Source: Cyanidioschyzon merolae (Eukaryota). Taken from it: DNA of 64,000 bases. Position 1 is the stretch's first letter, and each line of letters begins with the position of its first letter. This document shows positions 3,997 through 60,513 of this stretch, one piece after another. The notes under the pieces were generated by a model. That model worked only from the letters and a program-made list of their open reading frames with translations. It ran no database searches and was not told the origin of the DNA. The position numbers were made by a program, and so were the translations under genes. The DNA lies in assembly GCA_000091205.1 (NCBI GenBank), contig AP006498.2. One strand, 5' to 3'.

Positions 3997-4135
3997 GGCC
4001 ATGCACGAACCCGTACGGTAGAGAATGAACTGCTTCGGAGACCTCAGCTTCTTGAGTTGTACTGTTCGCCATGGGATACAGGCCGTGCACGAACCCGTAC
4101 GGCAGAGAATGAACTGCTTCGGAGACCTCAGCGTC
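3997..4135. repeat. tandem duplication, ~69 bp unit x2
   Basis: ccgtacggtagagaatgaactgcttcggagacctcagcttcttgagttgtactgttcgccatggga is repeated twice in direct tandem with about 3 mismatches. Confidence 0.7.
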
Positions 4136-8450: not shown

Positions 8451-8816
8451 GGCACAAAGAAGCTCTTTTGCTTCTAAAAATAAAAAATCTACGGGAAATG
8501 TTTGAACATGCGAGTTTAGGATCCAAAAAAGCCATCACCGCCGGGTTCGACAAAAAACCAGAGAGCAAATCCTCTTCTCGCCGACCACGCAGCGAAGAAG
8601 AGCAAATGACGAAGAAGAGGAGAGATAGGCGAGGAAACTGTTTGCCTGATGTGGTGATGACGAGTCTGTAATGGAGCATCGGGCACGAGTTCTAGAAATC
8701 CTTGCACTGCTGAGTTCAACCAGCGGCAACATAAGTATGGATTTTGTCAGCCGAGAGTTCAACACCGACATGCATATCACACGGTATGCGGTGCTGAAGA
8801 AGAGACCCAAGTAGCT
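8378..8816 (+). pseudogene. degenerate Fanzor/TnpB-like C-terminal remnant (third, diverged lineage)
   Basis: Translation of 8671..8816 gives MEHRARVLEILCTAESTSGNISMDFVSREFNTDMHITRYAVLKKRPK. This aligns with the family C-terminus [49 protein letters not shown]. The RuvC-III motif is degraded (NRDFNAAINI becomes SREFNTDMHI). Confidence 0.5.
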
Positions 8817-9299
8817 TACGCAATCAAACTTCGTGGACCAGCCTCTGATGCTTGACATGTGATTCGATAAACTGAGACCGATACCAGGCGGCCGGTCCAA
8901 AGAGGCAGGGAGGCGACTGCGCGAAAGTAGATATATATACCATCCATCGACGTGCAACGTTATTCGTTTTAGAGAGTATACATTCGATACTGGACGCTCG
9001 CGACTGATGATTCGTTCACAAGGTCATGCCGAAAGCTCACAGAACTTGCCGCGTCAAATATTCGATTCCGTTAGAAAGACAACTGATATGCATTTTGTGA
9101 CGATTGACGAAATCGAGCACGCCAGCAGGATATTACCGCTCACGGGATATGCCCACAGAACCTGTGTCTCTTCCGTTTCCGCGGAAAAGAGTCTTGGACT
9201 CCGACATCAGTCATCTCAGCGATCGCTTCCAGCAGGGCATGCGACAGCGCAGCATGCGAAAGGGGGAATCGACGGACTGGAATTTCATGACTTGGCCTC

Positions 9300-12949: not shown

Positions 12950-13106
12950 TGTTGGAGTCAGTCCAGCTCTTGATACGAACGTGAAACAAAGTGAACGACT
13001 TGCAAGGAGTGCCTCCTGTTTGAACGCGGATAACAGCGTAACAAATAGTTATGAAGCGCTTTGGATCGTCGCACGGGGTATTGACGCGCAGCCTTTTGTG
13101 ATTTAT

Positions 13107-20406: not shown

Positions 20407-21194
20407 ACGGATGCTTTGCGTATAAAACATGGAGCGTTCAGGTGAGGAAACATAGAGACTTGTACGTTTACGGGTTGCCAGCTGCAGATCACGGGTACAC
20501 GCTCTTCGAGCAAACTCAACGACGCCGTGGGTCATACTCACCAACAAAATCATCCCCGTCATCCTGCTTCGAAGACCAGCTAATGAAGAGTACCAGCATC
20601 GTGATGAAGACACCGAGCAGCACGATGAGCAGACGTGAGTCGTCGATTCCAAGCGGCTCACCGGTGCCGTCGGTGGCCCAGGCGGCAGACCCCAGGGTCA
20701 TCCATGAGGTTAGCGTGGTCACAGCGCTAACGGGCACTGCCTGCCAGCCTGCCGGCAGCCGTGCGCGCTCTTGTTTCGTACTATGCAGCGCACACTGAAG
20801 ACGCGCGGGAACTCGCCTTGCCGCCACAGCAAGCTTAAGCGTTGTGCCGCTGGTGCTAGTGCCCGCTGAAACCGGTCCCCGAACGAGACCCAGCGGAGAA
20901 ACGAAAGCACAGTTGACCATGGATAGTATATAGCGAAAAACTCGAGAAGGGCTTGTTCTTGTAACTGGACTAGGTGTGCTTAGGCACGTTCCAAAGGCAA
21001 GCACACGAGCAACACGTGCTCCGTGTTGAAACTGTACCGATGCGTGCTCTCCGACGATCGCCGCCGAGCTCACGATCGAGGCGCAGGAGGCCGCACACTG
21101 GGATGCGTAAAACGCTCAATTACATGTGCCTGCGGATAGCGCGCCCGCTCCTGACGAGATCGCGTTCCGGCGGCGGGCGTCGTCGTCGCGCACC

Positions 21195-22072
21195 GTTGGA
21201 TGCCACACGCCGTGCTATCGGCATGATTATGGGTAATTTTATATACACAATTGGTCTATACGGTCGTGCGTAGCAGAAGACATCCAGGGTCGCATCCGAT
21301 GCACAGAAGCGCTATCGGCATGATTATGGGTAATTTTATATACACAATTGGTCTATACGGTCGTGCGTAGCAGAAGACATCCAGGGTCGCATCCGATGCA
21401 CAGAAGCGCTATCGACATGATTATGGGTAATTTTATATACACAATTGGTCTATACGGTCGTGCGTAGCAGAAGACATCCAGGGTCGCATCCGATGCACAG
21501 AAGCGCTATCGGCATGATTATGGGTAATTTTATATACACAATTGGTCTATACGGTCGTGCGTAGCAGAAGACATCCAGGGTCGCATCCGATGCACAGAAG
21601 CGCTATCGGCATGATTATGGGTAATTTTATATACATAATTGGTCTATACGGTCGTGCGTAGCAGAAGACATCCAGGGTCGCATCCGATGCACAGAAGCGC
21701 TATCGGCATGATTATGGGTAATTTTATATACATAATTGGTCTATACGGTCGTGCGTAGCAGAAGACATCCAGGGTCGCATCCGATGCACAGAAGCGCTAT
21801 CGGCATGATTATGGGTAATTTTATATACATAATTGGTCTATACGGTCGTGCGTAGCAGAAGACATCCAGGGTCGCATCCGATGCACAGAAGCGCTATCGA
21901 CATGATTATGGGTAATTTTATATACATAATTGGTCTATACGGTCGTGTGTAGCAGATGGCATCCAGGGTCGCATCCGATGCACAGAAGCGCTATCGACAT
22001 GATTATAGGTAATTTTATATACATAATTGGTCTATACGGTCGTGCGTAGCAGAAGACATCCAGGGTCGCAGC
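21195..22072. repeat. minisatellite, ~97-98 bp unit x ~9
   Basis: Unit gctatcggcatgattatgggtaattttatatacacaattggtctatacggtcgtgcgtagcagaagacatccagggtcgcatccgatgcacagaagc. Copies differ by a few ordered substitutions (ggcatg/gacatg; acacaatt/acataatt). Confidence 0.9.
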
Positions 22073-22209
22073 GTCCACCAGGTAGGAACGCCAGCCAGAC
22101 GCCACTCACATCGCTGCGACGCTAGAGCGCCCGTGGGATCTGCAAAGAAAAACCCTGTCGTGGCGCTTGGTATGCGTACTGGGATCAACGCCCACGTAGA
22201 TAAAGCCTG

Positions 22210-25406: not shown

Positions 25407-27734
25407 CTAGTGACCGGACGACGTCGGTGCACCATTACCCGCATGATGATCATCTTCTTCATCAAAATCATCATCATCATGAGTATCCGTTTGTCTGGTT
25501 TGCTGTGCTGCCTGGTAGAATGTAAACGTTTGGAGAACTTGCCGCTGAAAAACAGCCTTTGTCTGTAGTCCTGTCACCTTGTCATGCTTTTTCAAGATCT
25601 TTTCGAAGCCGGTTGCATTCAGTTCGATAAAATTCACCAGTTCCATGATTTCGACGTAGTGCTCTCGATACCGTTGACGGAGGAGCGCGAGTCGCTGCTG
25701 GTCTTGACGTCGCAGGGAGGCCTCGGCATCGACGGCGAGCGCTTGCGAGATGCGCTCGAGCTCTCGCTCCATGGCGCAAAAGAAAGCGTCTACCTTGACA
25801 GCTTCGATATGGAGGCGCTCGAAGAAGCGACGTTCCATTCGCCAAAAGGCCTCCCGATGCGATTGAGCCCATTGCTCGCTCGACATGAGCGGTGTGCTGG
25901 GTAGCGCACCGTTCCAAGGCTGCGCTCTCATCGTCGGGTTCCGAGACGCAAGTGTGGATCGTTGCGGCACTGCGACTACGGGCGCTGCGAGCGGGCTCGA
26001 GTATGCCAGTGTATGAGTCGTCTCGGCGGTTTGAAAACGAGACGGTGGCCTCTTATTGCAGCAAGCTCCCGGAGGCGTCTCGTTACGATCCTGTGCAGGA
26101 GGTGTTCTGGGTGGAATGATTTCCCCCAGGAGCGGGGTGCGCTCGTGCACGGGCTTGCTCCGTACAGCCGATGCTGGGTAGCACGCTGGCGACGCCCTGT
26201 CAGAGCCAACAGACGTTCGCGGACTCGTGCCTGGTGCATCGCGTCTAGCGGAAGCGTCTTCTCGCAGTGCGGCGCCCGGAAGCGGCCTCGCGAGTTGCAG
26301 CGGTGGCGGTGCTGCGGACGAGCAGGCATTGGCGGACCGCTCAGGCGCCGCCGCAAAATAGTCGCTGGGTGCATGACGCGGTGCACCGTGCTCTAGTTCG
26401 TAGAGCACATTCGCACTGGCCGTTTTCCGGAGCGCTGGAGCCAGTCGAGCGCTACGACTCTCGCGACGCTCGATCGCAGCAGCGCTGGTGTCCCCCGTGC
26501 TGGCCAATGGCGATGCTAACGGTCGTGGATAAGTATCCGTATGCATCGCTGGCGTTAGATTCAACGCAGTAACGTGTGCATCTGCTGCTCGTGCTGTTCC
26601 CGCTGCGTGAGCATCTTGATGAACACTCGGCGACGCAGCCTCGTCTTCCGCAGGTGCCGTCTGCGCACCATTCAGAGGTACGCGTGCGGCTGGGCACGGT
26701 GCGTCGCGGTGCCCTGCATTTTCTCCAGCGCTCGGGAAACCTCTCAGAGAATCAGGTACGCATCCCGTAACCGAGAAGCTGTGCTGTGAACGCAACGCGT
26801 TGCCACCCGGGTCACCAATGTGGTCGTCGTCGTCGTCGTCGTCGTCATCGCTTTCATCATCATCATCATCATGATCGTCATTATCGTTATCGTTCTTGGT
26901 AACGGTGTTGCGGTTGCGAGTCCTGCTGTCATTTGCGGCGCTAGCGCCCCCGGAGGATGCCATGTCCGCGACCCGCAAACGTTCCGCGTGATCCTCCACC
27001 CATCCAGGCGATTCTGAGACCTGCGATACCCCCGAGGGCATTCTGGTTGCTCCCCGTGCAGATTCGCTGCAATCGCCCGGTGAAGCAGACCGAGGTTCCA
27101 CTGCGGTGCTCGCTTGCGCAGATATCCCGCCCGACACCTGTTTCTCGTTTCCAATGGCGTGCATCCACACACTAGCCCGCGTGCGCTGCTCGATATCCTC
27201 CGAGCCAGCAGAGATAACCGACACGCGGGCCAGACGGGCTCGCTCCTGCTCTGTCGCGTGGTGTTCGAGTCCTGTGCTTGGCGCGCTGGCCGCGTCTGAA
27301 GGAAGACGCTCGAATTTAGCGTCCGTCTGAGCATGGGGTGCAGCACCAGCGCCATCAGCTGTTTCTGGTGCTAATGCTACTGCCTCCGCACCCCAGGAAC
27401 CGTGTTCCACAGGGGAACGGAGCGGGGCTATTCTTGCTGTCGCTCTCGCATGTAGCGTATCCACTTCAATTTCCTCCTCTGGGGGCGGACTCGACACCGA
27501 AGCAGTGGAAGACGAAGCACCCCGTCCACAGACCGCGTCTCCACGAATCCATATAGCTAGCGTAACTTCACGAAGCGGTGAACAGCTCATGGCGGGATCA
27601 CCGGCCCCGTACTTGCGGAGCTGCTGTCGCACACTGCCCAGTCGGGAGATATATTTTTTCAACTCGCTATAATCAAGATAGTGCTCCCGCCACTCTGCAA
27701 CTGCATTGTACATGAGCTGCTTTGAGAACTTCAT
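25407..27734 (-). CDS. SPX-domain protein (SPX split by a ~550 aa disordered/acidic insertion)
   Basis: ATG at 27734 gives MKFSKQLMYNAVAEWREHYLDYSELKK, the SPX N-terminal subdomain. The C-terminal part of the SPX domain follows (...FFCAMERELERISQ...GFEKILKKHDKVTGL). The track start at 27743 is TTG. A poly-D/E stretch DDHDDDDDESDDDDDDDDDH lies in the insert. Confidence 0.85.
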   Translation of the reverse strand: MKFSKQLMYNAVAEWREHYLDYSELKKYISRLGSVRQQLRKYGAGDPAMSCSPLREVTLAIWIRGDAVCGRGASSSTASVSSPPPEEEIEVDTLHARATARIAPLRSPVEHGSWGAEAVALAPETADGAGAAPHAQTDAKFERLPSDAASAPSTGLEHHATEQERARLARVSVISAGSEDIEQRTRASVWMHAIGNEKQVSGGISAQASTAVEPRSASPGDCSESARGATRMPSGVSQVSESPGWVEDHAERLRVADMASSGGASAANDSRTRNRNTVTKNDNDNDDHDDDDDESDDDDDDDDDHIGDPGGNALRSQHSFSVTGCVPDSLRGFPSAGENAGHRDAPCPAARVPLNGAQTAPAEDEAASPSVHQDAHAAGTARAADAHVTALNLTPAMHTDTYPRPLASPLASTGDTSAAAIERRESRSARLAPALRKTASANVLYELEHGAPRHAPSDYFAAAPERSANACSSAAPPPLQLARPLPGAALREDASARRDAPGTSPRTSVGSDRASPACYPASAVRSKPVHERTPLLGEIIPPRTPPAQDRNETPPGACCNKRPPSRFQTAETTHTLAYSSPLAAPVVAVPQRSTLASRNPTMRAQPWNGALPSTPLMSSEQWAQSHREAFWRMERRFFERLHIEAVKVDAFFCAMERELERISQALAVDAEASLRRQDQQRLALLRQRYREHYVEIMELVNFIELNATGFEKILKKHDKVTGLQTKAVFQRQVLQTFTFYQAAQQTRQTDTHDDDDFDEEDDHHAGNGAPTSSGH

Positions 27735-28011
27735 GGTACTCAAACGTAAATCGTCTGTTGCATACTATGCTCAAGATCAGCAAGAAAATAGTGGTTCAAC
27801 GCACAGCGCGTTCGTGCTCCTGCACGCTCTCCAAGTCGAGCGCTCTGAACGAGGCGGCACCTCCGGCTCGCTCGTGATGCGCGTTAACGTTCGAGCGGCG
27901 GTTTCGTGCACGCCCGACACCGCACCATCAACGCCGCTCTAAAGTCGAACGACTTCGGGCGTGTACAGTAGTGGCGGCAACCGTGCCCTAGACTTAAAGT
28001 CTCCAACTGAA

Positions 28012-29092
28012 GTGCAGACGCTTCCTAGGCTTTCTGGACCGGGCACTCACTACTGCTTCCAACTTGTTCTCATATAGTTCGAATTTGAGAGATTGTCCAA
28101 TAAAGTTCATTCTTGTCCGCTCTGGAGGTCTCGTCTCCAGCGCTGCACATCTGCTTATATTGATAGCGGCATTAAAGTCGCGATTCACGAATTCCATGCG
28201 TTTCGTGCCATCATTGGTTGTACTTACCAATGCAAGGAGTCCACGAACTTTCGCCCTCCTTTCCATTTGCTCCTCCGTCAGCGGTCCATACTTTTTTATA
28301 TCTTCAGGGCTCCGCTGTCACTTTTCCATCTCCACTCTCTGAAGTGTACACCCCAGTTCATGCTGTGTATAGGACGTTCGGAACACATCTATCGGTATCG
28401 TGACGAAACGCCGTGCACACTCTTTGTACGTTCTTGTCGTTGGAGCTGGTGTACACCCTTTTTGGGTCTTCCATCGCCCTGCTCCGTACGCGACTACGAG
28501 CGTCTGACTGTCATCCTCCTTCAAGGCGCTCAACTCATTGAAAAAGTTCGCGAACGCCCGCTGTTTCCCACAGTATAGATTCATGCGCAGACGAGCCGGC
28601 CGGGGCTTTGTATATTCTTCCCACAGCGCATCCCAATGCGCAAACCGATCTTCTATGAATTTCCGAAAAGCTGTAAAGCCCGCTCCTCGGCTCGTCACCT
28701 CGCTCATAGCTTCCAGGTGATCTTTCATTCCTGAATTCCACGTACAAATTTTCTTCCTCGCATTCATTATACCGGATCCTCGATAGCATCTTGCTCTCGA
28801 GAACCTCAAAAAGACGCATATCTTTCTGACGTAAGTTACCATCAGTCCCATCTTCCGCACACTTTGGTACAGCGATGGTTATGATATTCGTATTCCCAGG
28901 GTCCACGCCAACGACAAAGTCGTTATCCTGCACCTCCTGCATCGCAGGATCCCCATCATTCTCATCTACATCCTTCGCCGAGCCGTCTACAAGGTTGTAC
29001 TTTTCCACTTCCTGCGTCACAGAATCCGCGTCCTTCTCGTCTATATTCTTCGCCACGGGCGAAGCCGAAGACGGACCAGGAGACGGGCCCAA
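28012..29092 (-). mobile_element. Fanzor/TnpB-like element, copy 1 (5'-truncated, diverged subfamily)
   Basis: Minus-strand ORFs give FVVGVDPGNTNIITIAVPK (RuvC-I), VVAYGAGRW...[29 protein letters not shown]...[14 protein letters not shown], a single in-frame TGA, then [11 protein letters not shown]...EFVNRDFNAAINISRC (RuvC-III). The 3' terminus ...gcgtctgcac lies at 28012 (minus strand). Confidence 0.8.
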
Positions 29093-29999
29093 CGGCGCTG
29101 GAGGCGCAGAAGAACGCGTTTGCCGTTGGCATGGATCCCGGGAACACCCACATCGTTACCATCGCAGCACCCAAGCGTGAGGAAGATGGCTCTGACGGCA
29201 ACTTACGTCAGAAAGACATAAGTCTGTTGAAGCTCTCATGAGCGAGATATTACCGAGAATCCGGTATAATGAATGCAAGGAATAAAAGTGAGACATCGAA
29301 TTCAGGAGTGAAGGGAATTTGGAAGCGATCAGCCGGGTGACGAGCCGCGGAGCCGACATGGAAGCGTTTCGAGAGGCCATGAGCATTCACGCAGCTCATG
29401 ACGAAAGCCTTTGGAAAGAATGCACAAAGTTCAGGTGGGCTCGTCTGCGTATGAACCTGTACTGTTGGAAACAGCGAGCATACGCCAGCTTTTTCAATCA
29501 GTTGAGCGCCCTCAAGGAGGACATGAGCCAAAGGCTCGTAGTAGCATACGGGGCAGGTCGATGGATGCCCCAAAAAGGGTGTACACCAGCTCCAACGACA
29601 AGAACGTACAAGGAGTGCGCACATGGTTATGTCGAAATACCTTTAGATGAGTTTCGAACATCTTCTACACACCACGAGCTGTGTTGTACACTTCAGAGGG
29701 TCGCGATGGAGAAAAGCCAGCGGCTCGCTGACGGAAATGCAAATGGCAAGGAGGGCGAAACTTCGAGGACTACTCGCATTGGTTACTACAACTACTGATG
29801 GCAAGAAACGAATAGAGTTCGTGAATTGAGACTTTAACGCCGCCATCAGTGTAAGGAGGTGTGCAGTACTGGAAAGAAGACCCCCGGAGTTGGCGAGAGC
29901 CAACTTTGCGAGGCAACCTCCCAAAATGGAGTGATACCAGAAGAAGTTGAAACCAGTAGTAGGTGGCCAGTTGCTGAACGCCAGCACAGTCGTCTGCAC
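29080..29999 (+). mobile_element. Fanzor/TnpB-like element, copy 2 (5'-truncated, head-to-head with copy 1)
   Basis: AFAVGMDPGNTHIVTIAAPK ... [48 protein letters not shown] ... RRAKLRGLLALVTTTTDGKKRIEFVN then TGA then DFNAAISV, a stop inside RuvC-III. It ends ...cagtcgtctgcac at 29999 and is about 80% nt identical to copy 1. Confidence 0.8.
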
Positions 30000-30330
30000 A
30001 TCGATGGGTAGACATTCGGTCTACGGCGGACGGTGTGAGAAGCGCCACTCTTGTACACTGGCTTTCCAGCGTTTCTCTTTTGCAAGGCGTTTGGTGGTGT
30101 TTCCAGAGACGAATTGTTTATCAAAAACGTCTTCTGTCGATCTTCGAAACCAACGTGCTGCTTCCTCTGTGCGGCACGGGGCGTACGCTATGCGCTTTTC
30201 TGCTGATTGACAGCGGAAGCGACAAGTCCGGTTACTGCCTTGAAGACTTAGACGCTTTGGAGAGACCATCATATCGATGGTTTCAGTTTTCTGACCTCCT
30301 CCTAACCACCACGCTCGGATCTCTGTTGCA

Positions 30331-35353: not shown

Positions 35354-36004
35354 GAGGGCAGCGTGCAAGCAGAATTAGAGTTGCATATTGTTCGGTACCC
35401 GTGCACTGCGGTGCAGAGTATACGGACCACGAAGCATGAATATGGCAAAGAAGGTTCGTTTTTATGTACGGAGCGGTGCGTATGCGCATCCGCTCACACA
35501 CGTTCACAAGCCCCAAGTCGGATAGCTGAGGATTCCCAAACTGCACTGTACTGCACTGCCGTTCTTGGTCGTTCGAATTCTCTCCATCCAGAAACGCATC
35601 CCATACGGACGCTCGAGACGCTCTCTGCTCACCAGCGCAACTCCATGAGGCTCCATTCCTGCTATGCGTATTCGTATGCTATGTTGATGTGTATAGCAGA
35701 AGGTCGAGATGTAGAAGCAATGTGCTGTATAGATCGTAGTCGAATAGAATGTTAGATACATATTCTCTACTGAACAGTGCAAGGAGGACTGCATTCCTCG
35801 TTCAGGTACGGTTCACCACAGTATTCAGATGGACGAGGAGCACTGGACGGAAGACGTATATGCGCGCGGTGCCGATAACCGACATTTTCAGAGACTGCGT
35901 GCAGTCAATGGTAGCAAACCGCAACCCGTTGATCACTTTATGGGAATCAAAAGCGACGATAGTGGACACCAAGGGCGTCCCTGTTTCTCACCAGCTTGTT
36001 CGTT

Positions 36005-36340
36005 TAGTGCTAAAAACACTGGGATAGAGTCGCAAAAGAAATGTCCGATTTCACCCGTGGCCATCTTCCACCGAAATCGCAGCGGCAGCATTCCCAGTCC
36101 GTTGCGCTCGGTATGAAGCGCAGGAGAGTCGGTTTGTTTTCCCGATTCTAGCGCGGAGTAGAGCTGGTTTCCATTCCCCCGTAAATTCCAAGGTTGAAAC
36201 CCATTGAAAGAGTGTTTTCTATTGTGGAAAGTAATGATCGCTCCGCTGGGCGAGTAAGTAGATCGTTCAGCAAACGGTGACACACCGCGGCGCATGTTGC
36301 CGATCTTCCGCAAGTCCTTCTCGCTTCGGGAAGGTCCTCA
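36005..36340 (+). repeat. dispersed repeat family R2, copy b
   Basis: Homologous to 7815..8450 (aaaacactgg...ccgaaatcgca...atgatcgctccgctgggcgag...ccgcaagtccttctcgct). Downstream sequence contains a segment inverted relative to copy a. Confidence 0.6.
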
Positions 36341-36865: not shown

Positions 36866-38584
36866 ATGGCCCATAAACAGAAAGCTGGGTGTATTTCCGT
36901 GCTGAAGCGCGGTGTGGAAGCCGAGTTCGCAAAGCTCTTCCACGACGGCGACCTGGAAGCAGCCCGAACCGAGTTGAACGAGTCCGTTCGCGACCTCATC
37001 GTCTGGGAGCGTAACACCGTCTGGCGAGATATGTTGCTCCAGGAGCGTCGGCTTCGAGACACGCACGCCAAGCGAAGCGGCACCCGCGACTCGCCGTTTC
37101 GGGCGTTTCGAGTGGTTCCATTTCTCGTGGCGGTGGTGCTCTTTCTGGGCGTCCTCTTTGCACCGGCATCGCAGTTTATGTTTCTGCAGCGGGCGCTGGA
37201 AGAACGGGAAAATCAGGGTCACCCGATATCGGCAGCTGCCGCAGCTGCACGGAACGCAGCCGCCCAACGCTGCCTCGCGCTGGTCACGTTCGCGTCGGTA
37301 CTCTGGGCCACAGAGGCAGTGCCGCTATTCGTCACCTCGTTGGCAATGCCACTGCTTGCAGTCATTCTACGCGTATTCCTCGACGAGAAAGGTGAGCGGA
37401 CACTCGGACCGACCGAGGCTGCTCACAAGTCCATCACATCCATGAGCAGTCCCGTGCTCCTGCTCATTCTTGGCGGTTACAGTATTTCGGGAGCGCTCAG
37501 CAAGCATGCCATCGACAAGGCGGTAGCGATTGCAGTTTTGCGCCATGCGCGACGACCTCCAGAACTGCTGCTATTACTGATGCTTTTAGCGGTTTTCTTA
37601 TCGATGCTGGTATCGAATGTGGCGGCACCGGTATTGACGGTCGGTATTGTGACACCACTGCTACGCAGCTTGCCACCAGGGACTCCCTTTATCAAGTGTG
37701 CGCTGCTCGGTGTCGCCGCAGCTTGTAACGTAGGCGGCATGACCTCGCCGATCGCGTCTCCGCAGAATGCGATCGCGTTGGATGCCCTGCGCGGTGCCGC
37801 GTCCATCTCTTTTCGCCAATGGGTAGCGATAGCGCTGCCGCTTGCTCTGGTTACCGTATTTGTGATGCATGCGTACTTAATCGTTCGTTTTGGACGCGGC
37901 CCGATGCAAGCGTTTCCACTGATTCCTATGCATAGTCCGCTGAAATGGAAGGATACTGGGATGGCGCACTTGGTTGTCATTCTGACGGTTCTGGTCACTG
38001 TGGCGCTCTGGAGCAGCAAAACTGTTTCGGATCGATTCGGTGGGGACGGCATTGTTGCCCTCGTACCTGTGGTGGTGTTCATGGGCACTGGTCTTTTGAG
38101 CAAGGAGGATTTCAATGCGCTACCTTTTAATGTTATCTATTTGGTGTCCGGCGGCGTCGTGATGGGCGCTGCCGTTCGATCCAGCCGCTTGCTGGAGCTC
38201 GTGGCCGCATCCGTGCATTCCGCAGTGGTTGGCGCCGGCCTCTACAAGACCTATCTGACCTTTATGCTGATGACACTTCTTGTGGCGTGCATTATGAGCC
38301 ACACGGTTTCCAGTATCATTCTGAGTCCCGTTTTAGCCGAGCTTGGCGCAGCGCTTGGTCATCCACGGCTCATGGTGCTGGGAGGTGCACTGGCGTGTTC
38401 CTGTGCAATGGCACTGCCCGTGTCAAGCTTCCCGAACATGGCCGTGATCAGCGTCGAAGATGAGCTCGGGAATCCTTATTTAAGTGCTCGCGATTTCGTA
38501 TGGGTAGGCTTTCCTCTGACGTTGCTCGCGGGCGCAGCACTGGCGAGTCTCGGCTATGTGCTTTCGTTTTACGCTGGCCTGTGA
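36866..38584 (+). CDS. anion permease of the ArsB/NhaD/CitMHS (DASS/SLC13-like) superfamily
   Basis: ATG at 36866. About 12 predicted TM helices. Motif [22 protein letters not shown] (SNxAxP-type). Internally duplicated hairpin-like halves. Soluble N-terminal domain of about 70 aa. Confidence 0.75.
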
Positions 38585-38589
38585 GCGCC

Positions 38590-40092
38590 ACGACCAGCTC
38601 GCTATCCTGCATATGCTGCGTTGCAGGATCCGCCTGATCTTTTTCTGCACGATTCGTCACGGGCGATATCGAATACGGACCAGGACGATCCGCTTTCAAG
38701 CGCCGATAGTGTACACACATGGCTACGCCATCGGCTTCGATCATCCCAGTGAATACCTTTTGCTTGCTGGCTTTGAGACGCTTGAAGTCGAAGATATTCA
38801 TCCAGTGCGTCTCCCCGTTTTCACCGGTGAACTCCTCCGTGCTGACATCGAACTCCGGGCTGATCTCTCTCATGATCCCGTAAAGGACGCCGGAGTCGAT
38901 TGTCACAAAATGTGACTTGATGTTGCACAACGGAACGACGTTGAAGCGCTTACCCATTAGGAAAGCATCCCGTCTCTCCGACTTTTCATTTTTTCCCCGA
39001 CTCAGCTGCTCTTCGGCGTTGCGTTCGAGTTCTCGGTTCCGAAACAAGAAACAGCTTAGGATGACGGGATAACATCTTTTTTTCATTTCTGATACATTTT
39101 CTACGGGATTGACTGGCCCAAAACTGCACGGTGCTCCTGTATAGCCGCACGGATTACAGAAGCTTCATTTGTGCTGCTGTGTGACGTCTTCTTGTCGACG
39201 AATTCGATCTCCTGTCCACTCTGGCGATCGTTCGTGATACAATTGATGATGCCCCACATCCCTTTGCGCGAGATGCCCGGGTAGAGCGCAAAGATAGATC
39301 GTACCACGAAGCGTTCGAGGTTCACGGTCAGATGGTTCTTCAGGTTCGTCAGGTACTTCATGGGCACTTAGAACTAAATATTCGAGTCATGCCTGTATCG
39401 AGTACCGTTGAAGCGGTACTTGGGGCATTTTTCGTGGAGGGCATATACTCGCGCATTTCGCTTCTACGCTTCCCCCGTGCCAAACATCAAGTGACGAATA
39501 AAGGTCTTGTCGAAAAATTCTTCCGGAACCTCTTCTGTTTCCATGCCCGTCACGTCGCGATACATATCCCTCGCGATATGCATCAGTCCTACGGCAGCGT
39601 CTCATACACTCATAGAGTGCGCCTCGAAACGGGTTCTGATGGCCTCTTGGGGCTTTTCCCTGTGCGGTTCTTTGATGTGTTTCAGAAGACAGGCTTTCAC
39701 CAGCATCTCGTAATATGATCGTCTTTCTCGCATCCATTGACGTCGGGCATCCCGCTGTCGCTTCTTCGACCTGTCTCGTTCCGCTTTGCTCGGCTCTGGT
39801 TTTCATTTTTCTCCGGCAGCCGGCGACGCCGGGCCTCCAGCATCCTCCACTTCCATTTCCATTACTTTCCATTGCTATGATAAGAATGCACTTTGGAAGC
39901 GTCTACTGTAAACTACGAAAAATCACTTGACTAGAGTACTGTAAGGGCTGAAACACGAATGAATCGCAAGACTATACTTTGCTATGACGTCAACGCAAAT
40001 ACGACTTGAACCTAAAGTACAACAACAAGTTAGCGAATGATCAGGATCGCAATTCCCTTCAAAAGCGAGATACGCGTCGAGTCTGATGCCTT
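38590..40092 (-). mobile_element. Fanzor/TnpB-like element, copy 4 (5' part only; truncated at its 3' side exactly at the permease stop codon)
   Basis: About 97% nt identical to copy 3 (58360..59362) over 1.5 kb. Contains ORF-A MKYLTNLKNHLTVN... and the N-terminal 212 aa of the nuclease ORF (MKKRCYPVILSCFLF...KADRPGP). Homology to copy 3 stops at 38590, 6 bp after the transporter stop at 38584. The 5' boundary (gtctgatgcct) is shared with copy 3. Confidence 0.8.
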
Positions 40093-40824
40093 CCAGACAC
40101 AGACGTGAGCGTAACGACAGCATTAAATGGAACAAAGAATAGAAACTCACTACTAACTAGCAATCCGATAGGAATTTCGTTTCCCACTACGATCGACGTT
40201 AAAAGGGGGAAAAGCTTGCCGTATCTTCGAAGGTTGATCTTCGAGGTGGAAAGTCTCGCGAGCCGGACGAATCCCCAGTGCTTGTGCTTCGTGCTCCACC
40301 CAGAGTCAGGTGATTTGGCGAGATCTGAGCAACTAATCCACAACGCAGTTTATTCTCGAACTAGGGGCAGTTGATGTGCCTCTGGGCGTCGCCCTGGTCG
40401 CAGTGGACTCTTAGTATATTGCTGCGCGCTGCCGCAGACAGACGTACTGTCTGCGCAGCTTGCGGACTCCCAGAATGATGATGTACGCCGACTCCGTGTC
40501 GATTGCAACACATCTCGAGCCGACGCCCTCAGTGGTACGGAAAAACCGTTCTGTCTCCGTGCAGCACCCGCTTCAGCGGTATAAGCGCTACGGCGAGTGC
40601 TCACGGCAGGCAGTCGTCGCAGGATAGAACATACGAAACGACCAGCGTATCCCAGAGGAATTGTAAGTAATGGAACCTGGAAGTAGGGTGCAGCATGGTG
40701 GACGATCACATGAATCTTAAAGCCCATCCCGGATTTCGGACTCCTTGGTCCATGGAAACGTTTTGTCATCATAAGAGCAGGAAATCGCTGACAGCGTTGA
40801 CGTAGCAGGCGCCACGCACGTGCA

Positions 40825-43197: not shown

Positions 43198-43687
43198 AGC
43201 CAACACCGGCTCGCCTGGCTTTTGCGAGTGTTTCTGGAGCGTATGCCGCAGCACGAACTGCGCTGTCGTCTGAGCACTGAAGCCGCAAAGCACGAAGGCT
43301 AGTCGTGCGCGTCTCGGCCTGGGCGCTGGGTTCGTTTGGCGCAAAGCTCTAAGGATGCTTTGCGCAAGACCAAGCGAGTTTTCGTTATATGAACGCGGGT
43401 CGTCAGCTGTGCACACCAGTTACACCCGTGCTTCGTACCCAGTGACATAAAGCTATCGCTGGCGCCGCGCGGAGCGAAGAAAATTACCAGACGCGATGGC
43501 TCGTTGGTTGCAAACCAAGGCGCCCCGCACGCAGTTCCGGTGCTCTTACCAGCAGGCTATGTGGCACCCGCGCAGTTCGTGTGAACGCCGCTCGGGCAGG
43601 TTGCGCTGGGCGCCGAGCGCTGGCCACACCATGGGACGCAAGGCAGCTGCTGCGGTAGCGAGGCATCACCCACCGGCTATGGAGCAA

Positions 43688-43918
43688 CCGTACATGATCC
43701 CGCAGAATACAGATTGTTTGGCGCGCTTTTCTTGCTCACTTCGGCGCACGCTGATCAAATCAGGAACCGTACATGATCCCGCAGAATACAGATCTTTTGG
43801 CGCGCTTTTTTTCGCTCACTTCGGCGCACACTGATCAAATCAGGAACCGTAAATGATCCCGCAGAATACAGATCTTTTGGCGCGCTTTTTTTCGCTCACT
43901 TCGGCGCACGCTGATCCA
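43688..43918. repeat. tandem repeat, ~80 bp unit x3
   Basis: ccgtacatgatcccgcagaatacagat(t/c)ttttggcgcgc(t)ttttt(c)gctcacttcggcgcacgctgatcaaatcaggaa repeated three times. Confidence 0.7.
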
Positions 43919-44188: not shown

Positions 44189-45760
44189 ATGCGAGCGCTG
44201 GTGCTCGAGCTCGAATGGCACGAGCAGCAGCGCGGTGTGTTTAGTGTCGACATCGCTGCAGATGGAACGATTGCGACAGGCGGCCAGGACAAGCGGGTAT
44301 CTCTCTGGCGTCTGGAGCCAGACTGGGAGCAGCTGCGTGCGCTCGCTGCCCAGCCACACGAGCCATCGAAGAAACAGCGGTACGCACTGGCGCAGGCGGC
44401 AGCTCAGTCGGTGCGTTTCCTGGACACACTGGAGGGACACGCCGCTGCCGTCTCCGTGGTACGCTTTGATCCCGTCGACTCGGGCCGACTAGTCTCAGGG
44501 GCGGACGACGGATACGCTGTCTTGTGGAAGTTCGACGCAGTGCAGGGCAAGTGGCGACTCGAAGCGACACTGCATGAGCACAACGACATGATCATGGACG
44601 TATCTTGGAGCGCGGATGGCAAGCTTCTGGCAACGGCGTCCGTCGATAATACGGTGGCTATCTGGAACACCACGGACTCGACTCGACCGCAGTTGTTGTT
44701 GTCGCTGCGCGAACATACGAATTATGTGCAGGGGGTATCCTGGGACCCGCTAGGGACCTACTTGTGCTCCATGGGCGCTGATCGCCTTCTACGGGTACAT
44801 GAGTGGTCGTCTGATCGCCGCCGGGTGATACGTTCGACAGCGGTTGGGAGCATGGTGCACAGTGATTCAACTGCGCATCCCTGCATGACCGCGGACGCCT
44901 CATGTCCGCCAAGCCATTCGGAAACGCAACAGATAACGCCTGTGCCATCCCATCCATTGGAGTCAGAACCGAGAAAACCTTCGTCCCGTCGTCTTTTTGA
45001 GAGCGAAGGGCTCATGCACTTCTTTCGGAGGCTCGCGTGGAGCCCCGACGGCAGCTTCCTCGTCTGCCCGGCGGGCATCGTCCCGGAGCCACGCGATGCT
45101 GCCCCGACTTGTTCGAGCAGAGACGCAGCGCCGCATCGGACCAAGGGCGCGCATGTGTTTGCGCGCTCGAACCTGTCGACACCGCTACTGCACCTCGGTG
45201 GACATGAAGAGTCGATTCTCGGGGCTCGCTTCTGTTCGCGGCGCTTCGCTCGTCGCCAGGATCCCACATTGGATGAGGACCTTGGTTGCTGGCGTTCGCG
45301 ATTGCCATACCGACTCGTTTTCGCCATTTACAGCGCGCGAGGTCTTTACATGTACGACTCGGAAACACCACATTCTTTTGCAGCGGTGCAAGGCCTCCAC
45401 TACGGTGCCGTGACTGACGTGGCGTGGTCCCCGGATGCATCATTTCTCCTGATGTCGTCGCTAGACGGCTTCCTCAGTCTGGTGTGGTTTGAGCGGGAAA
45501 CAGAACTTGGCAAGTTTTTTGAGGAATCGGGCGAGCTGCAGACTGGCAGCAGATCATCGCCTAGCACACCGTTGACAACTGGTTCTTGCAGCCTGGACGG
45601 GGGCCAGGGGTCCCATCGCAGCGCCGACCCAGTCATGCGATGCAACCGGGAACAGCCCATCGCCTCGACACTGGTATCGAGCGACGCCGACAGTGGCCAT
45701 GGTCGGAACACCGACCATTCGACGAAAGTCGGGGAACATGCTGTCAGCAGCACGACCTGA
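44189..45760 (+). CDS. CHAF1B: chromatin assembly factor 1 subunit B (CAF-1 p60 / CHAF1B / Cac2-like) WD40 protein
   Basis: ATG at 44189. VFSVDIAADGTIATGGQDKRVSLWRL; TASVDNTVAIWN; HTNYVQGVSWDPLGTYLCSMGADRLLRVHEW closely parallels CHAF1B ASVDNTAIIWDV / [30 protein letters not shown]. The 523 aa length fits p60 rather than HIRA. Confidence 0.8.
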   Translation: MRALVLELEWHEQQRGVFSVDIAADGTIATGGQDKRVSLWRLEPDWEQLRALAAQPHEPSKKQRYALAQAAAQSVRFLDTLEGHAAAVSVVRFDPVDSGRLVSGADDGYAVLWKFDAVQGKWRLEATLHEHNDMIMDVSWSADGKLLATASVDNTVAIWNTTDSTRPQLLLSLREHTNYVQGVSWDPLGTYLCSMGADRLLRVHEWSSDRRRVIRSTAVGSMVHSDSTAHPCMTADASCPPSHSETQQITPVPSHPLESEPRKPSSRRLFESEGLMHFFRRLAWSPDGSFLVCPAGIVPEPRDAAPTCSSRDAAPHRTKGAHVFARSNLSTPLLHLGGHEESILGARFCSRRFARRQDPTLDEDLGCWRSRLPYRLVFAIYSARGLYMYDSETPHSFAAVQGLHYGAVTDVAWSPDASFLLMSSLDGFLSLVWFERETELGKFFEESGELQTGSRSSPSTPLTTGSCSLDGGQGSHRSADPVMRCNREQPIASTLVSSDADSGHGRNTDHSTKVGEHAVSSTT

Positions 45761-53840: not shown

Positions 53841-54558
53841 CCCCGGGTACGGGTACGGGTGCGGAAGCGGAGCAAGTCTTCAACTGGAGCTGTGTGTATC
53901 CGTCTAGTCTGCGTTCCAGGCGATGAAGCAAGCGTTCAAGCGCCACAGAATGGCGCGCGCTGAGATACAGGTATGATGGACAAACGGGAGCACCTGCGTA
54001 TATTTCATGGACACCGCTGCAATGAGCGCACCAAAGCTCTCTACAAAGAACATGAAAACGGCAAGCAAAATGCAGATCGCTAGTTCCGCTCATGGAAGAA
54101 CTTCGTTTATGACTGTTGAAAGCAGTAAAGTCGGAACTCTGTTGCCGCCATCATCATCCGTCGAGTGCCGACGCTGCAGCTGGAGGGACGACAGTGATCC
54201 GCGACTTTCAAGCCAAATACAAGCGGAAGCGAACGGGAACAGTTGCAGCAACATCCCGTCAAGGCTGCTGCTCATGGCTCTGGGACGAGATCCGACCATC
54301 ATGGGTCTGAAAACCCGTGTGACCGAAGTGCACCCGTCCCATGTTTCGAACATGGCTGCCGTGCAACACTGCTGTTTGGGAGCGCAGTGTCTGCTTTTTT
54401 TGGTTAATGGCAGCAAGCGCACATTCGCGATAAACCATGCTGGGCTCGTTCATCAGACATCATACAGAATATTCGCCACTATCCGTTTGCGGAGGATTCG
54501 CCAGGATCGCAGAACTGCGGTTCATTGATGCCGACCGAGTCGTCTCTATACAAATCGC

Positions 54559-54836
54559 GGCATTCTAAAATGCTCTTTGTCGAGTATAGCTCCATTTCAG
54601 GATTTCATTCGTATGCTGGATCATGACGGCATCCTAGCATGCTCTTTGTCGAGTATAGCTCCATTTCAGGATTTCATTCGTATGCTGGATCATGGCGGCA
54701 TTCTAGCATGCTCTTTGCCGAGTATAGCTCCGTTTCAAGGTTACAGCAGTTTGCTGGATCATGACGGCATTCTAGCATGCTCTTTGCCGAGTACAGCTCC
54801 GTTTCAGGATTTCATTAGTCTGCTGGATCATCGTCC
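54559..54836. repeat. tandem repeat, 69 bp unit x4
   Basis: ggcattctaaaatgctctttgtcgagtatagctccatttcaggatttcattcgtatgctggatcatgac repeated four times with increasing divergence. Confidence 0.75.
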
Positions 54837-56070
54837 GGATATATCATTCGGTCGTCAGCGTATTCCGCGGCTCCGTTCCGACTAGAGCAAGTGTGTGTCG
54901 CTGCGCTAGCGCAGCTTCTGCGCCGCACTCGTTGGCCCCCTTTTTCCTCATGCGCTTCCGAAAATCACTCATTGAGACGCTCAGAGAGTTTCAGTAGGAT
55001 CTTTGCGCATTCGGGCTCAAAATGCCTCACTACTAGCCACTGCTCGCTTGCGATTCCCTCTACCGTCCGATGCTGGTGGCAGCGCCTTGCACCACGGGAG
55101 TACCCGCAGTCCGTCGTCGTTTGCGCCAACGGTGCACGTTTCATACTGAGACCCACTTTCGACGCGCTCGGAGAAGCAGGACGACGATGTCTGCGTTCAA
55201 GCCGAGCAACCACAGCTCTGCGCTAATGCCGAGAGCCGGGCCGGACGCCGCAGCATGCGGAACGACACCATGCTGCGTCGCGCAGCGGCAGCACGAGTGT
55301 AAGAGCCAGCAGACACCGGTCAGGGACCTCGAGATATGCCTCCAAAGTGGCTACCAGGACCCGCTTCGGGAAATATGACTCCGTATGCGGCCGGAGCTGC
55401 AGCATGGGAGAACCGTAGCCAAATGACCGAACGATCGCTCGCTGTTTACAGGGGAAATTTGTTCGGAAGCCAACGAAGCAAACACGAGGTTTCAAATGAA
55501 AGGCGAACAAGCAATTGAAAAAGAAAACAGGTTACCGACTCCTTCCGCTGCCTTAGTCAACATGCCTGCACTTTGGAGCAGAAAACTGCAGATGATTCGG
55601 TGAAGCAGCGAGCGGCAACGTCGTCTCTACTCGCCCCGCGTATTCGACGTCGGCAGTGGCTACGGTTCGGATCCGTTCGGATTCAAACCGGCATCCATCA
55701 GCCGTTTACCTCCACGCTGCCGCATAGCGGACGACAAGCGCACTTTCGAGCATGCAGCTATTCACTGGCGCGCTGCGCTCACGGGCATCGGCGTGAAACG
55801 CATGCGGTGGCATCCATCGGCCACGAAGACGCGTACCTAAACCTCGCAGCAACTGGGATATGGGGCCGACAAGACGTTCCCTCACATGACTCCTTCGACT
55901 CGCAATGCAGAAACTTCACGCTGGGCTGGAGCAGGCCTCCAAAGCATGCCTCACATGGCGCTTGCAGAGCGGGATGCATACGCTGCTGTTTCCGCTACCT
56001 GGCTCGCTTAACGCATTCACTTGGCCGCAACATCCCTGAAAGCCGAATGCGGCGCCATGACGTGCATGCG

Positions 56071-56838: not shown

Positions 56839-56954
56839 GGCGTCCAGTATGTCAGCTTCGAGAAGCGCAATGGCGCTGAATGAGTGCTTGCATCTGGAGC
56901 GTCGGGAACGCGGCGAGAACGTTCCGCGAACACACAGGGTAAATGGGTACCGAC

Positions 56955-59362
56955 GTGCAGACGTCTCCCAGTGTTTTTTGACCGGCCATCTACTACTGCC
57001 TCCAACTTATTCTCATCTAGTTTGACTTTGAGAGGTTGTCCAACAAAGTAGGCTCTCGACAGCTCGGGAGGTCTTTTTTCTCCATCACCACACATCTCCT
57101 GATATGGATAGCAGCATGAAAGTCACGATTCACAAACTCGATACATTTCTTGCCGCCGATGGTGGTTGTACTCAGTAATGGAAGGAGTCCTCGAACTTTC
57201 GCCCTCCATTCCATTTGCTCTGCAGTCAAGGCTCCGTACGTTTTTATATAACCTCAGGATTCCGCTGACACTTTTGCATCTCGACCCTCTGAAGTGTGCA
57301 CCGAAGCTCTTGGTGTATAAACGATGCTCGGAACTCATCTATGGGTACTGTGACAAATCGCCTCGCACACTCCGGGTACGTTCTTGGCGTTGCAGCTGGT
57401 GTGCTCTCTTTTTTCGACCCCCAGCGCCCTGCTCCGTATGCTACGACCAGCCTCTGACTTTCATCTCCTTTGAGGGCGCTCAACTCATTGAAAAAGTTCG
57501 CGAATGCACGCTGCTTCCCACAGTACAAGTTCAGACGCGGACGAGCCCGCCTGGGCATTGTATATTCTTTCCACAGCGCATTGCCATGAGCAACGCGAGT
57601 TTTGATGAATTCTCGAAAAGCTCGAAAGTCCGCTCCACGACTGGTAACATCGCGAATAGCTTCCAGGTGCTGTTTCGTGCCTGGATTCCATTTCTCAATT
57701 CTCTTCCTCGCACTCGTGAATCCCGATTCTCGATAGTATCTCGCCCTCGAGAACCTCAAAAGACGCATGTCTCTCTGGAAAAAGTTACCGTTGATACCAT
57801 ATTCCGCACGCTTGGGTACAGCGTTGGTTATTGTAGTCGCGTTCTCCGGGTCCGCGCCAACGACAAACTCGTTCTCCTGTACCTCCTGCGTCGCGGAATC
57901 CGCCTGATCGTTTTCTGCACGATTCGTCACAGGCGATATCGGAAACGGACCAGGAGGATCCGCTTTCAAGCGCCGATAGTGTACACACATGGCTACGCCA
58001 TCGGCTTCGATCATCCCAGTGAATACCTTTTGCTTGCTGGCTTTGAGACGCTTGAAGTCGAAGATATTCATCCAGTGCGTCTCCCGGTTTTCACCGGTGA
58101 ACTCCTCCCTGCTGACATCGAACTCCGGGCTGATCTCTCTCATGATCCCGTAAAGGACGCCGGAGTCGATTGCCACAAAATGTGACTTGATGTTGCACAA
58201 CGGAACGACGTTGAAGCGCTTACCCATTAGGAAAGCCTCCCGTCTCTCCGTCTCTTCATTTTTTCCCCGACTCAGCTGCTCTTCGGCGTTGCGTTCGAGT
58301 TCTCGGTTCCGAAACAAGAAACAGCTTAGGATGACGGGATAACATCTTTTTTTCATTTCTGATACATTTTCTACGGGATTGACTGGCCCAAAACTGCACG
58401 GTGCTCCTGTATAGCCGCACGGATTACAGAAGCTTCATTTGTGCTGCTGTGTGACGTCTTCTTGTCGACGAATTCGATCTCCTGTCCACTCTGGCGATCG
58501 TTCGTGGTACCATTGATGATGGCCCACATCCCTTTGCGCGAGATGCCCGGGTAGAGCGCAAAGATAGAGCGTACCACGAAGCGTTCGCGGTTCACGGTCA
58601 GATGGCTCTTCAGGTTCTTCAGGTACTTCATGGGCACTTAGAACTAAATATTCGAGTCATGCCTGTATCGAGTACCGTTGAAGCGGTACTTGGGGCATTT
58701 TTCGTGGAGGGCATGTACTCGCGCATTGCGCCTCTACGCTTTCCCCGTGCCAAACATCAAGCGACGAATAAAGGTCTTGTCGAAAAATTCTTCCGGAACC
58801 TCTTCTGTTTCCATGCCCGTCACGTCGCGATACATATCCCTCGCGAGATGCATCAGTCCTACGGCAGCGTCTCATACACTCATAGAGTGCGCCTCGAAAC
58901 GGGTTCTGATGGCCTCTTGGGGCTTTTCCCTGTGCGGTTCCTTGATGTGTTTCAGAAGACAGGCTTTCACCAGCATCTCGTAATATGATCGTCTTTCTCG
59001 CATCCATTGACGTCGGGCATCCCGCTGTCGCTTCTTCGACCTGTCTCGTTCCGCTTTGCTCGGCTCTGTTTTTCATTTTTCTCCGGCAGCCGGCGACGCC
59101 GGGCCTCCAGCATCCTCCACTTCCATTTCCATTACTTTCCAGTGCTATGATAAGAATGCACTTTGGAAGCGTCTACTGTAAACTACGAAAAATCACTTGA
59201 CTAGAGTACTGTAAGGGCTGAAACACGAATGAATCGCAAGACTATACTTTGCTATGACGTCAACGCAAATACGACTTGAACCTAAGGTACAACAACAAGT
59301 CAGCGAATGATCAGGATCGCAATTCCCTTCAAAAGCGAGATACGCGTCGAGTCTGATGCCTG
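56955..59362 (-). mobile_element. Fanzor/TnpB-like element, copy 3 (near full length, ~2.4 kb)
   Basis: 5' boundary shared with copy 4 (gtctgatgcct). 3' terminus ...gacgtctgcac at 56955 is shared with copies 1 and 2. Encodes ORF-A (58371..58634), the nuclease ORF 57244..58356 (MKKRCYPV...[20 protein letters not shown]...VVAYGAGRW...[19 protein letters not shown]...[15 protein letters not shown]), then frame-shifted segments [38 protein letters not shown] (57017..57229) and ...RPPELSRAYFVGQPLKVKLDENKLEAVV (third frame). AT-richer than the flanking host genes. Confidence 0.8.
57017..58634 (-). pseudogene. Fanzor/TnpB-like RuvC nuclease coding region of copy 3 (frame-disrupted or spliced)
   Basis: RuvC-I-like G-A-D-P-E at ~57850. 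TnpB-like 'V.P.D.F.R-S' motif before a Cys/His cluster. Ruv[14 protein letters not shown]. At least two frame discontinuities relative to copy 1. Confidence 0.7.
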
Positions 59363-59467
59363 CCAGATATGGAGATGCGGGTATCGACCGCGCTATATAG
59401 AAAAATAGGGAGAGATACTAGCCCCTAACCAGCAACTAGATAACAGTTTGCTCCCGCTCCACGGAAA

Positions 59468-60055
59468 GCATTGAAAGAGGGAAACGTTCTCCGTATTTAC
59501 GAAAGTTTATCGCCAAAGCGGAAGCGCCCTAGAGACGGACGAGTCAACGGTGATTGTACTTTGTAGGCATCTATAGTGCCGGGTGCTGAAGAGAGATCTG
59601 AGCAGAACGTCTGCAACGAAGATTACGCTGAGAAGAGCAGCGAACAGGATGCATCTAGACATCGCCCGAGACCCGATCGTCTCCGAGCATACCGCTTCGC
59701 GCTGCCGCAGGCAGTAGGCAGCAGGCCTTTCTGCACGGCTTTCCAGCTCCCAGAATGATCATGAATCCCGATGCCGTGTCGGGTGAACGATACCTCCAGC
59801 TGACGTCCTCAGTCATATGGCAATGCCTCGCAGTCTCTGTGCAGCATTCGAATCATCGGTATAGGCACTTTTGCTGACCATCAAGGCAACCTCGGTGCAC
59901 AATAGAACGTACGAAATAACCAGTACATCCGATAAAAAGTACAAGTCATGGAACTTGAAGGTAGCGTGCACCATGATGGATACGTTCACCGAATGCCAAT
60001 ATCTAATCACGGAATCAACGATGAATGGTCAATGTACGTTTTCTATCCAGCAAAA
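59468..60055 (+). repeat. non-coding dispersed repeat, copy C (same family as A/B)
   Basis: gggaaacgttctccgtatttacgaaagtttatcgccaaagcgg...caatgtacgttttctatccagca is about 97% identical to B and to the reverse complement of A. It lies about 105 bp outside the 5' end of Fanzor-like copy 3. Confidence 0.85.
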
Positions 60056-60513
60056 ATATATCGGTAATAGGCGAGCGCTTCTGTAGCACTTGTGGCGGTA
60101 GTGAGGCGCACAGGGCTGAGCGCTCGCATGGGATGCACGCACTTGTCACACATCTGCTGGCGATGCCCTCAACCAACCAACCATCCAGCCAGCCAGCCAA
60201 GCAGGCGGGGGCAGCAGCGGGTGTTGTGCTTTCGTGCTGCCCGCGGTGCATAACTCACATACACCAGGGACGCTCGATCAAACTGCTCGTCTGGCTCACC
60301 GCGCCCAGACGCTGCAGTGACCAGAGTGCAACGCTTTCGGAGAGGTGTCGCACGGCAGACTCGGAGTTCGCTGCTCCTGCGGGCGACGACACCCGCCCGG
60401 GTGCTAGCGACGATACCGCTGCCGCAGCGCTATCCCGAATGATCATCACGACACCCGCATCTCCGTTCCTTACTTTTGTCCAGGGCATTAAAACCGAGGT
60501 TTACGTTCGATAG

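Follow-up and report, generated by a model that had tools for sequence, protein, structure and literature searches.

The interval from 56955 to 57230 on the minus strand of the 64,000-nucleotide (nt) stretch of Cyanidioschyzon merolae contig AP006498.2 analysed here (the window) appears to be the decayed 3' coding end of a Fanzor1-type nuclease gene. The CAC at its border is internal to the element, and the omega-RNA scaffold of the family would lie in the tail downstream of it. We put the probability of this reading, taken as a whole, at about three in four. The original prediction had placed the scaffold in the terminal 100-200 nt up to CAC, the right end of the element at CAC, and a guide in the next 15-20 nt. 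An omega-RNA at the 3' end is indeed expected for this family; the segment, boundary and guides that were named do not hold.

The motif ...CGTCTGCAC was read and aligned in the window, where it ends at 28012 (minus), 29999 (plus) and 56955 (minus), in copies 1, 2 and 3 respectively. The base preceding it is G or A in all three (...(G/A)CGTCTGCAC), and alignment shows the copies to be mutually homologous over about 950 nt. In the motif CGT CTG CAC are the codons Arg-Leu-His (R-L-H), which stand close to the C-terminal end of a nuclease of Fanzor1 type. In a self-comparison of the window, copy 3 is the longest one (about 56.9-60.07 kb, minus strand). It contains at least three frameshifts and is a pseudogene; a 2-nt insertion shifts the frame within the flagged interval. 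Its coding part and the sequence beyond are laid out as follows (ORF, open reading frame; aa, amino acids).

56955..57230, minus: flagged interval, 3' coding end of the Fanzor1 pseudogene copy 3, with the TNB region and the basic C-terminal tail ...KLEAVVDGRSKNTGRRLH
57110-57130, minus: RuvC-III motif NRDFHAA of copy 3, inside the flagged interval
57244..58718, minus: body of copy 3, a 370-aa ORF (57244-58356) and an N-terminal fragment in another frame
57322-57339, minus: DEFRAS of copy 3
57841-57855, minus: RuvC-I GADPEN of copy 3
56905..56954, minus: type-B tail of copy 3, with GTCGGT, the ATTTACCCT block (56936-56944) and ..AACGTTCTC
56905-56925, minus: possible hairpin GGAACG-N9-CGTTCC in this tail

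The segment proposed as scaffold is thus coding sequence, containing NRDFHAA and the basic tail. The last 60 nt before CAC are conserved, as had been reported, and this conservation is explained by protein coding and not by a scaffold: it is codon-periodic, with entropies of 0.38, 0.35 and 0.65 at codon positions 1, 2 and 3, and the periodicity is absent after CAC. The stems and covariation that the original prediction expected in the last 250 nt were not recovered, since RNAalifold found no conserved secondary structure there in 45 copies (-3.0 kcal/mol, one compensatory pair).

The Fanzor1 family

Homology searches with a window ORF gave 222 homologues, and a profile of these gave 1429 relatives of about 600-700 aa, many with basic N-termini. 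A profile of 54 relatives matches the solved Fanzor1 proteins PpFz1 (9cf0, E=1.8e-20) and SpuFz1 (8gkh, E=3e-12), and its DPG, DEFRT and NRDxNAA motifs are aligned with the same motifs in both. All 54 relatives share the RuvC catalytic residues D (GxDPG), E (DEFRT) and D (NRDxNAA), for which copy 3 has the corresponding codons at the motif positions listed above, and the copies carry VGADPGNTNIIT, DEFRTS and EFVNRDFNAAINI. Because the profile matches solved Fanzor1 proteins with these motifs aligned, the family is assigned to Fanzor1. Judged by sequence, the copies therefore belong to this family of eukaryotic TnpB-like RNA-guided RuvC nucleases, which bears out the type of element originally proposed.

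Only the broad profile reached Fanzor1; single proteins and a narrow profile gave no match in Pfam, NCBIfam or the Protein Data Bank (PDB) for the window ORFs and their close homologues. One relative has a sub-threshold match to PF07282. An AlphaFold2 model from a shallow alignment of 34 sequences had a predicted local distance difference test score (pLDDT) of 37, too low for fold comparison. The family is previously undescribed and highly proliferated; Fanzor1 and omega-RNA biology themselves have been known since 2023. No intact Fanzor gene is present in the window, every copy being a pseudogene by frameshift, nonsense codon, deletion or truncation, and a near-intact ORF of the family (722 aa) was found at one metagenome locus only (L013).

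Sequence beyond CAC

Seventy-nine related loci were fetched, and 68 distinct metagenome 3' ends were anchored on the motif. All 68 remain homologous past CAC, 67 with GTCAGTTGGAGAC-like sequence and 60 with the CCACTACTGTACAC block, and they fade after ...GGCGTT; a common end at CAC is not seen among them. The homologous proteins read ...GRRLH-VSWRRLV-stop, so that the stop codon lies 24 nt beyond CGTCTGCAC, after seven weakly constrained codons. The consensus past CAC is GTCAGTTGGAGACGTTTTGTCTAG, GGCG-(variable loop)-CGCC, ACTACTGTACAC, ..GGCG.. (terminal hairpin), GGCGTT. Column identity is 0.8-0.99 as far as TGTACAC and reaches background shortly after GGCGTT. Among 36 independent insertions the TT carries 1.4-1.8 bits of information and the next 6 positions carry 0.25-0.67; from +9 on the value is about 0.

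In the window, copies 1 and 2 share homology with one another and with the rest of the family over some 82-92 nt beyond CAC, and a covariance model of this tail, referred to as type A, matches 27928-28022 (minus, copy 1) at 98.5 bits and 29989-30093 (plus, copy 2) at 30.8 bits. Copy 3 matches the model over its first 20 positions only. Its downstream 40-50 nt are homologous to the tail that follows a Fanzor remnant at metagenome locus L015 (local score 25 versus 11.5 +/- 1.8; none of 1000 shuffles as high), and that tail is homologous to positions 8923-8965 of the window (score 29 versus 13.2 +/- 2.1 for shuffles). This shared type-B tail indicates that in copy 3, too, the element goes on beyond CAC, by at least 40 nt; the view that copy 3 is merely 3'-truncated was dropped once the tail was found. 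Type A measures about 105 nt with three hairpins, and type B about 45-55 nt with the ATTTACCCT block and a different hairpin. The two part about 7-14 nt past CAC and not exactly at it. A weak further match to the tail model at 45657-45748 (minus; 9.1 bits, E=0.77) is probably due to chance.

CGTCTGCAC is thus internal to the element and is not its terminus. Of the proposal that three copies end at a shared nucleotide, the motif and the homology of the copies stand; the end does not, and flanks described as unrelated immediately past CAC are homologous. As CAC is not the end of any of the three copies, the proposed guides belong to the element itself: in copies 1 and 2 they cover the last codons and the first hairpin, in copy 3 the type-B tail. 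A conserved scaffold-type segment followed directly by locus-specific sequence is found at the type-A ...GGCGTT and not at CAC. The case is a caution that similarity which stops at one common point in a few diverged copies can mark a junction inside an element and not a transposon end.

The literal form of the original prediction, with scaffold, right end and guides all referred to CAC, is consequently very improbable, although several observations lean its way. TnpB omega-RNAs overlap the ORF 3' end (PMC10530073), the 276 nt of the flagged interval fold as a single sequence mildly better than shuffles (z = -1.92), the two tail types diverge close to CAC, and RNAalifold can pair GGCG before CAC with CGCC of the tail. 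These are outweighed by the homology past CAC in 68/68 related ends and 3/3 window copies, by proposed guides that are conserved sequence including a stop codon, and by codon-periodic conservation without conserved structure before CAC.

Structure and possible role of the type-A tail

The main, type-A form of the element runs about 105 nt further than CAC. The motif is followed by seven codons (VSWRRLV), the stop and a predicted AGAC/GTCT hairpin, then by a predicted GGCG-variable loop-CGCC hairpin and a strongly conserved, single-stranded ACUACUGUACAC, and last by a predicted terminal hairpin of 8-10 bp with conserved G.U pairs and by ...GGCGUU, after which independent insertions have unrelated flanks. 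We propose that the post-stop tail of about 80 nt, possibly from GGCGUCUGCAC, acts as omega-RNA scaffold; the guide would then be the 15-20 nt that follow GGCGUU. The scaffold could start around GGCGTCTGCAC, hence with a small overlap with the ORF end. The tail RNA could also serve, in trans, an intact Fanzor encoded at another place in the genome. The relevant positions in copies 1 and 2 are as follows.

27928..28022, minus: type-A tail of copy 1, with GCGTCTGCAC, last codons and stop, hairpins and linker; best candidate omega-RNA scaffold in the window
27990-28002, minus: hairpin AGAC/GTCT, copy 1
27973-27987, minus: hairpin GGCA..TGCC/GCC, copy 1
27961-27972, minus: linker ACTACTGTACAC, copy 1
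27932-27954, minus: terminal hairpin, copy 1; GGCGTT ends at 27930
27910..27929, minus: putative guide position, copy 1, GATGGTGCGGTGTCGGGCGT, with an offset uncertain by up to about 10 nt
29989..30093, plus: type-A tail of copy 2; its terminal hairpin is of variant 2, CAGCGTTTCTC..GCAAGGCG; GGCGTT ends at 30091
30092-30111, plus: putative guide position, copy 2

Several features suggest that the tail is structured on one strand. RNAalifold gave -12.4 kcal/mol over 100 nt, with the alternative pairing of pre-CAC GGCG already mentioned. On a mixed alignment of the tails it recovered the GGCG/CGCC stem only, because the terminal hairpin occurs in two variants that do not share one register. The register problem was handled with a variant-1 alignment and with the covariance model. 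In the variant-1 alignment of 20 unfitted sequences the three hairpins are 91% paired, versus 25-48% for slid partners. The covariance model yielded 95 matches, 75 of them distinct, with 85% pairing versus 30-51% for slid partners, a covariation score of 0.128 versus 0.105 in shuffles (0/500 as high), and double changes at 12 pairs (8/500 shuffles as high); this 75-copy alignment is fitted to the structure and includes related or orthologous copies, so that it is supportive only. The two terminal-hairpin variants both keep their pairing, by a G-C to U-A exchange and by G.U pairs. In 32 of 33 independent copies the fold of the sense strand is more stable than that of the antisense strand (-22.5 versus -18.3 kcal/mol, p=1e-6), and the single-stranded ACUACUGUACAC block is about as conserved as non-synonymous codon positions.

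A long-range pairing of CAGUUGG, just past CAC, with CCACUACUG was rejected because inspection of the alignment by eye revealed no compensatory changes. Rfam 15 has no match at gathering threshold across the window, and a permissive scan of 27850-28300 gave chance-level matches only. At metagenome locus L031 (656-795) the distal half of the tail, 49 nt in length (CCGCCACTACTGTACAC...GGCGTTT), is duplicated in tandem, which suggests that it behaves as a unit. A solo tail module at three loci (L004, L016 and L024) was considered as a "ghost" element and set aside, since the three are one orthologous locus (85% identity) and not three events.

Comparison with known systems is in keeping with a scaffold in this position. 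Downstream of the ORF, Fanzor guide RNAs reach farther than TnpB guide RNAs do (PMC10530073). Fz1 omega-RNAs have, ahead of the guide, stem-loop 1 (SL1) and one to three further stem-loops (PMC11423790), and the 2-3 hairpins seen here are compatible with such a plan. PpFz1 of Parasitella parasitica (PDB 9cf0; Xu et al. 2024, PMC11423790) is the best match among solved structures, with DPGR, IDEFRTS and NRD aligned, although its sequence similarity to the present family is distant only. SpuFz1 of Spizellomyces punctatus (Saito et al. 2023, PMC10432273) is likewise a Fanzor1-type, multi-copy element with many decayed copies. Its loci differ in having clear 30-nt inverted repeats and a left-end CA motif, where the present family has modular 5' regions and no detectable terminal inverted repeat (TIR); a further difference is that the ORF of the present family extends 7 codons into the conserved module; and its RNA has been demonstrated by transcription and binding, whereas the RNA here is a predicted candidate. 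With the bacterial IS200/IS605 TnpB omega-RNA (right-end element RNA, reRNA), for example that of ISDra2, the family shares the logic of a right-side nuclease gene, a right-end scaffold and a flank-derived guide. The TnpB scaffold, however, largely overlaps the ORF 3' end, whereas here the ORF end has coding-type conservation only and the structured part follows the stop codon. The TnpB rule of a scaffold overlapping the ORF end should accordingly not be assumed for Fanzor1.

Because the type-A tail resembles known Fanzor scaffolds in position, size and general architecture, it is the best candidate scaffold here, and a role as omega-RNA is plausible. This adds to the Fanzor1 family a concrete candidate scaffold (GGCGUCUGCAC...GGCGUU) and a candidate guide position.

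Some of the results weigh against a scaffold in the tail or against the limits given to it. Covariation is weak, the 20 unfitted sequences giving 3 double changes, a number matched by 44/500 shuffles, and the mean fold z-score of the tail against shuffles is only -1.0. The right terminus is fuzzy by about 10 nt, and the type-B tail is represented by three sequences only. At 6 loci the left end aligned with the reverse-complemented right end no better than shuffles did, giving no TIR; no target-site duplication (TSD) is evident; and no target-adjacent motif (TAM) is definable because the left ends are heterogeneous. Moreover, a role in recognition of the element end as DNA, or in forming the 3' end of the mRNA, would suit the hairpins equally well.

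This last point is the core of the most serious alternative, which we consider unlikely: that the tail is a DNA-level transposon end, acted on by a transposase in trans (e.g. HUH-type), and/or the 3' untranslated region (UTR) or terminator of the Fanzor mRNA, and not a scaffold. Hairpins with conserved stems and variable loops near both ends, including the GCGC-N7-GCGC hairpin on the left, would suit it, as would the missing TIR, the weak covariation and the 49-nt duplication at L031. The conserved G.U pairs and the sense folding bias, on the other hand, point to one strand acting as RNA or single-stranded DNA; the ACUACUGUACAC block is about as constrained as non-synonymous codon positions; the tail fits the experimentally defined SpuFz1 scaffold in position and size (PMC10432273); and no transposase gene was seen adjoining the copies, where the ORFs between copy 2 and the transporter gene described below gave only a lipase-like host gene. 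The two roles are also compatible: in both TnpB and Fanzor systems, right end and omega-RNA overlap. We therefore prefer the scaffold reading.

Other copies, 5' modules and host context

The remaining Fanzor sequences of the window are listed below. Copies 1 and 2 are arranged head-to-head in the self-comparison, and GGCGACTGCGC at 8922 (plus) is a fourth, degenerate instance of the CGTCTGCAC motif.

28012..28952, minus: copy 1, 5'-truncated Fanzor1 3' half, with a TGA nonsense codon at the conserved ..EKC.. position
29093..29999, plus: copy 2, 5'-truncated Fanzor1 3' half; 28 nt are deleted, and the RuvC-III motif contains an in-frame TGA
38585..40702, minus: copy 4, 5' half only, 88% identical to 57854-59980
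8662..8965, plus: a fifth remnant, from the C-terminal part of a strongly diverged Fanzor (amino-acid identity about 40%); its ..GGCGACTGCGC ends at 8922, and a type-B tail occupies 8923-8965
59427..60070, minus: 5' module of copy 3, with outer end ..GGATAGAAAACGTACATTGACC and, at the inner end, TATA-like CTATATAG and then a GCGG-N7-CCGC hairpin
13106-13737, 14651-15263 and 40080-40702: the same 5' module elsewhere in the window

On its left side the element is built of modules. There a GCGC-N7-GCGC hairpin is followed by a conserved ATC.GGCAG block, and upstream of the hairpin lies either a module of about 630 nt starting ..ATGACAAAACGTTTACAT or a region of about 750 nt that is itself preceded by another tail module. 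A TIR formed by the left-end CCAATGACAAAACG and the reverse complement of ..CGTTTGTTGTTGG was suggested by eye and rejected, its alignment score being no better than shuffles. It is conceivable, if somewhat less likely still than the DNA-end alternative above, that this Cyanidiophyceae Fanzor1 family as a whole is built from at least two interchangeable 3' modules, joined to one and the same ORF a few nt from ...CGTCTGCAC, and interchangeable 5' modules, with no TIRs. Omega-RNA scaffolds or ends would then be swapped modularly within one nuclease lineage, possibly mobilised via subterminal hairpins and not inverted repeats.

At 13086-15302 two of the 5' modules (about 630-670 nt) point towards each other and form an inverted repeat of 96% identity, with a unique core of 875 nt between them. 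At its outer ends this repeat matches the outer end of the 5' module of copy 3, and the structure may be a non-autonomous derivative or a rearrangement. The breakpoints of the truncated copies 1, 2 and 4 (28952, 29093 and 38585) share one stretch of about 50 nt of the gene (57854-57901). This stretch is an acidic tandem repeat of variable copy number (..KEA.PATQEVQDNDLVV..) and immediately precedes RuvC-I. The majority of the locus alignments are split at this repeat as well, which suggests a recombination or deletion hotspot.

The copies are insertions. Here a gene for an SPX protein and one for a CitMHS transporter have 83-84% identity to adjacent genes of Cyanidiococcus yangmingshanensis, with order conserved. 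The host is accordingly placed in the Cyanidiophyceae, as a hot-spring red alga related to Cyanidiococcus. The syntenic intergenic regions are 0.73 and 0.64 kb in that species and Fanzor-free; those of the window, which carry copies 1, 2 and 4, are 9.1 and 2.2 kb. The larger, Fanzor-bearing spacers compared with short Fanzor-free ones indicate insertion, with the limit that the intergenic sequences of C. yangmingshanensis cannot be aligned as nucleotides and are informative in synteny and size only. A nucleotide-level empty site was not found, since the only same-species contig (L082) has the insertion. The Cyanidiococcus lineage has very small, repeat-poor genomes.

It is hardly credible, in view of these data, that the copies are a duplicated host gene family with neither a mobile element nor a guide RNA. 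That the window copies are all pseudogenes and that no TIR or TSD was found would agree with such an origin. It conflicts with the short, Fanzor-free syntenic spacers, with the homology of the protein to solved Fanzor1, and with more than 500 related loci, in relatives of Cyanidiococcus, that stand in unrelated flanks within a handful of hot-spring metagenomes.

Copy 4 breaks off precisely where the CitMHS transporter gene (36866-38584) has its stop codon (junction 38582-38590), so that the 3' UTR of this gene now lies within a Fanzor remnant. The SPX-domain protein (25407-27743, minus) and the transporter (36866-38584, plus) are separate and divergently oriented, as in Cyanidiococcus; in most other eukaryote matches the two domains are fused in one Pho87/90/91-type protein. 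Dispersed repeat pairs with 73-75% identity, at 7750-8443 (just upstream of the 8662 remnant) and 35924-36339 (upstream of the transporter gene), may belong to a diverged Fanzor subfamily. Tandem repeats are also present: a 97-nt unit in about 11 copies of 98-99% identity at 21117-22192, found as well at the end of the metagenome contig L082, and short arrays at 54554-54898 (69 nt x 5), 43648-43886 (80 nt x 3) and 3995-4161 (84 nt x 2).

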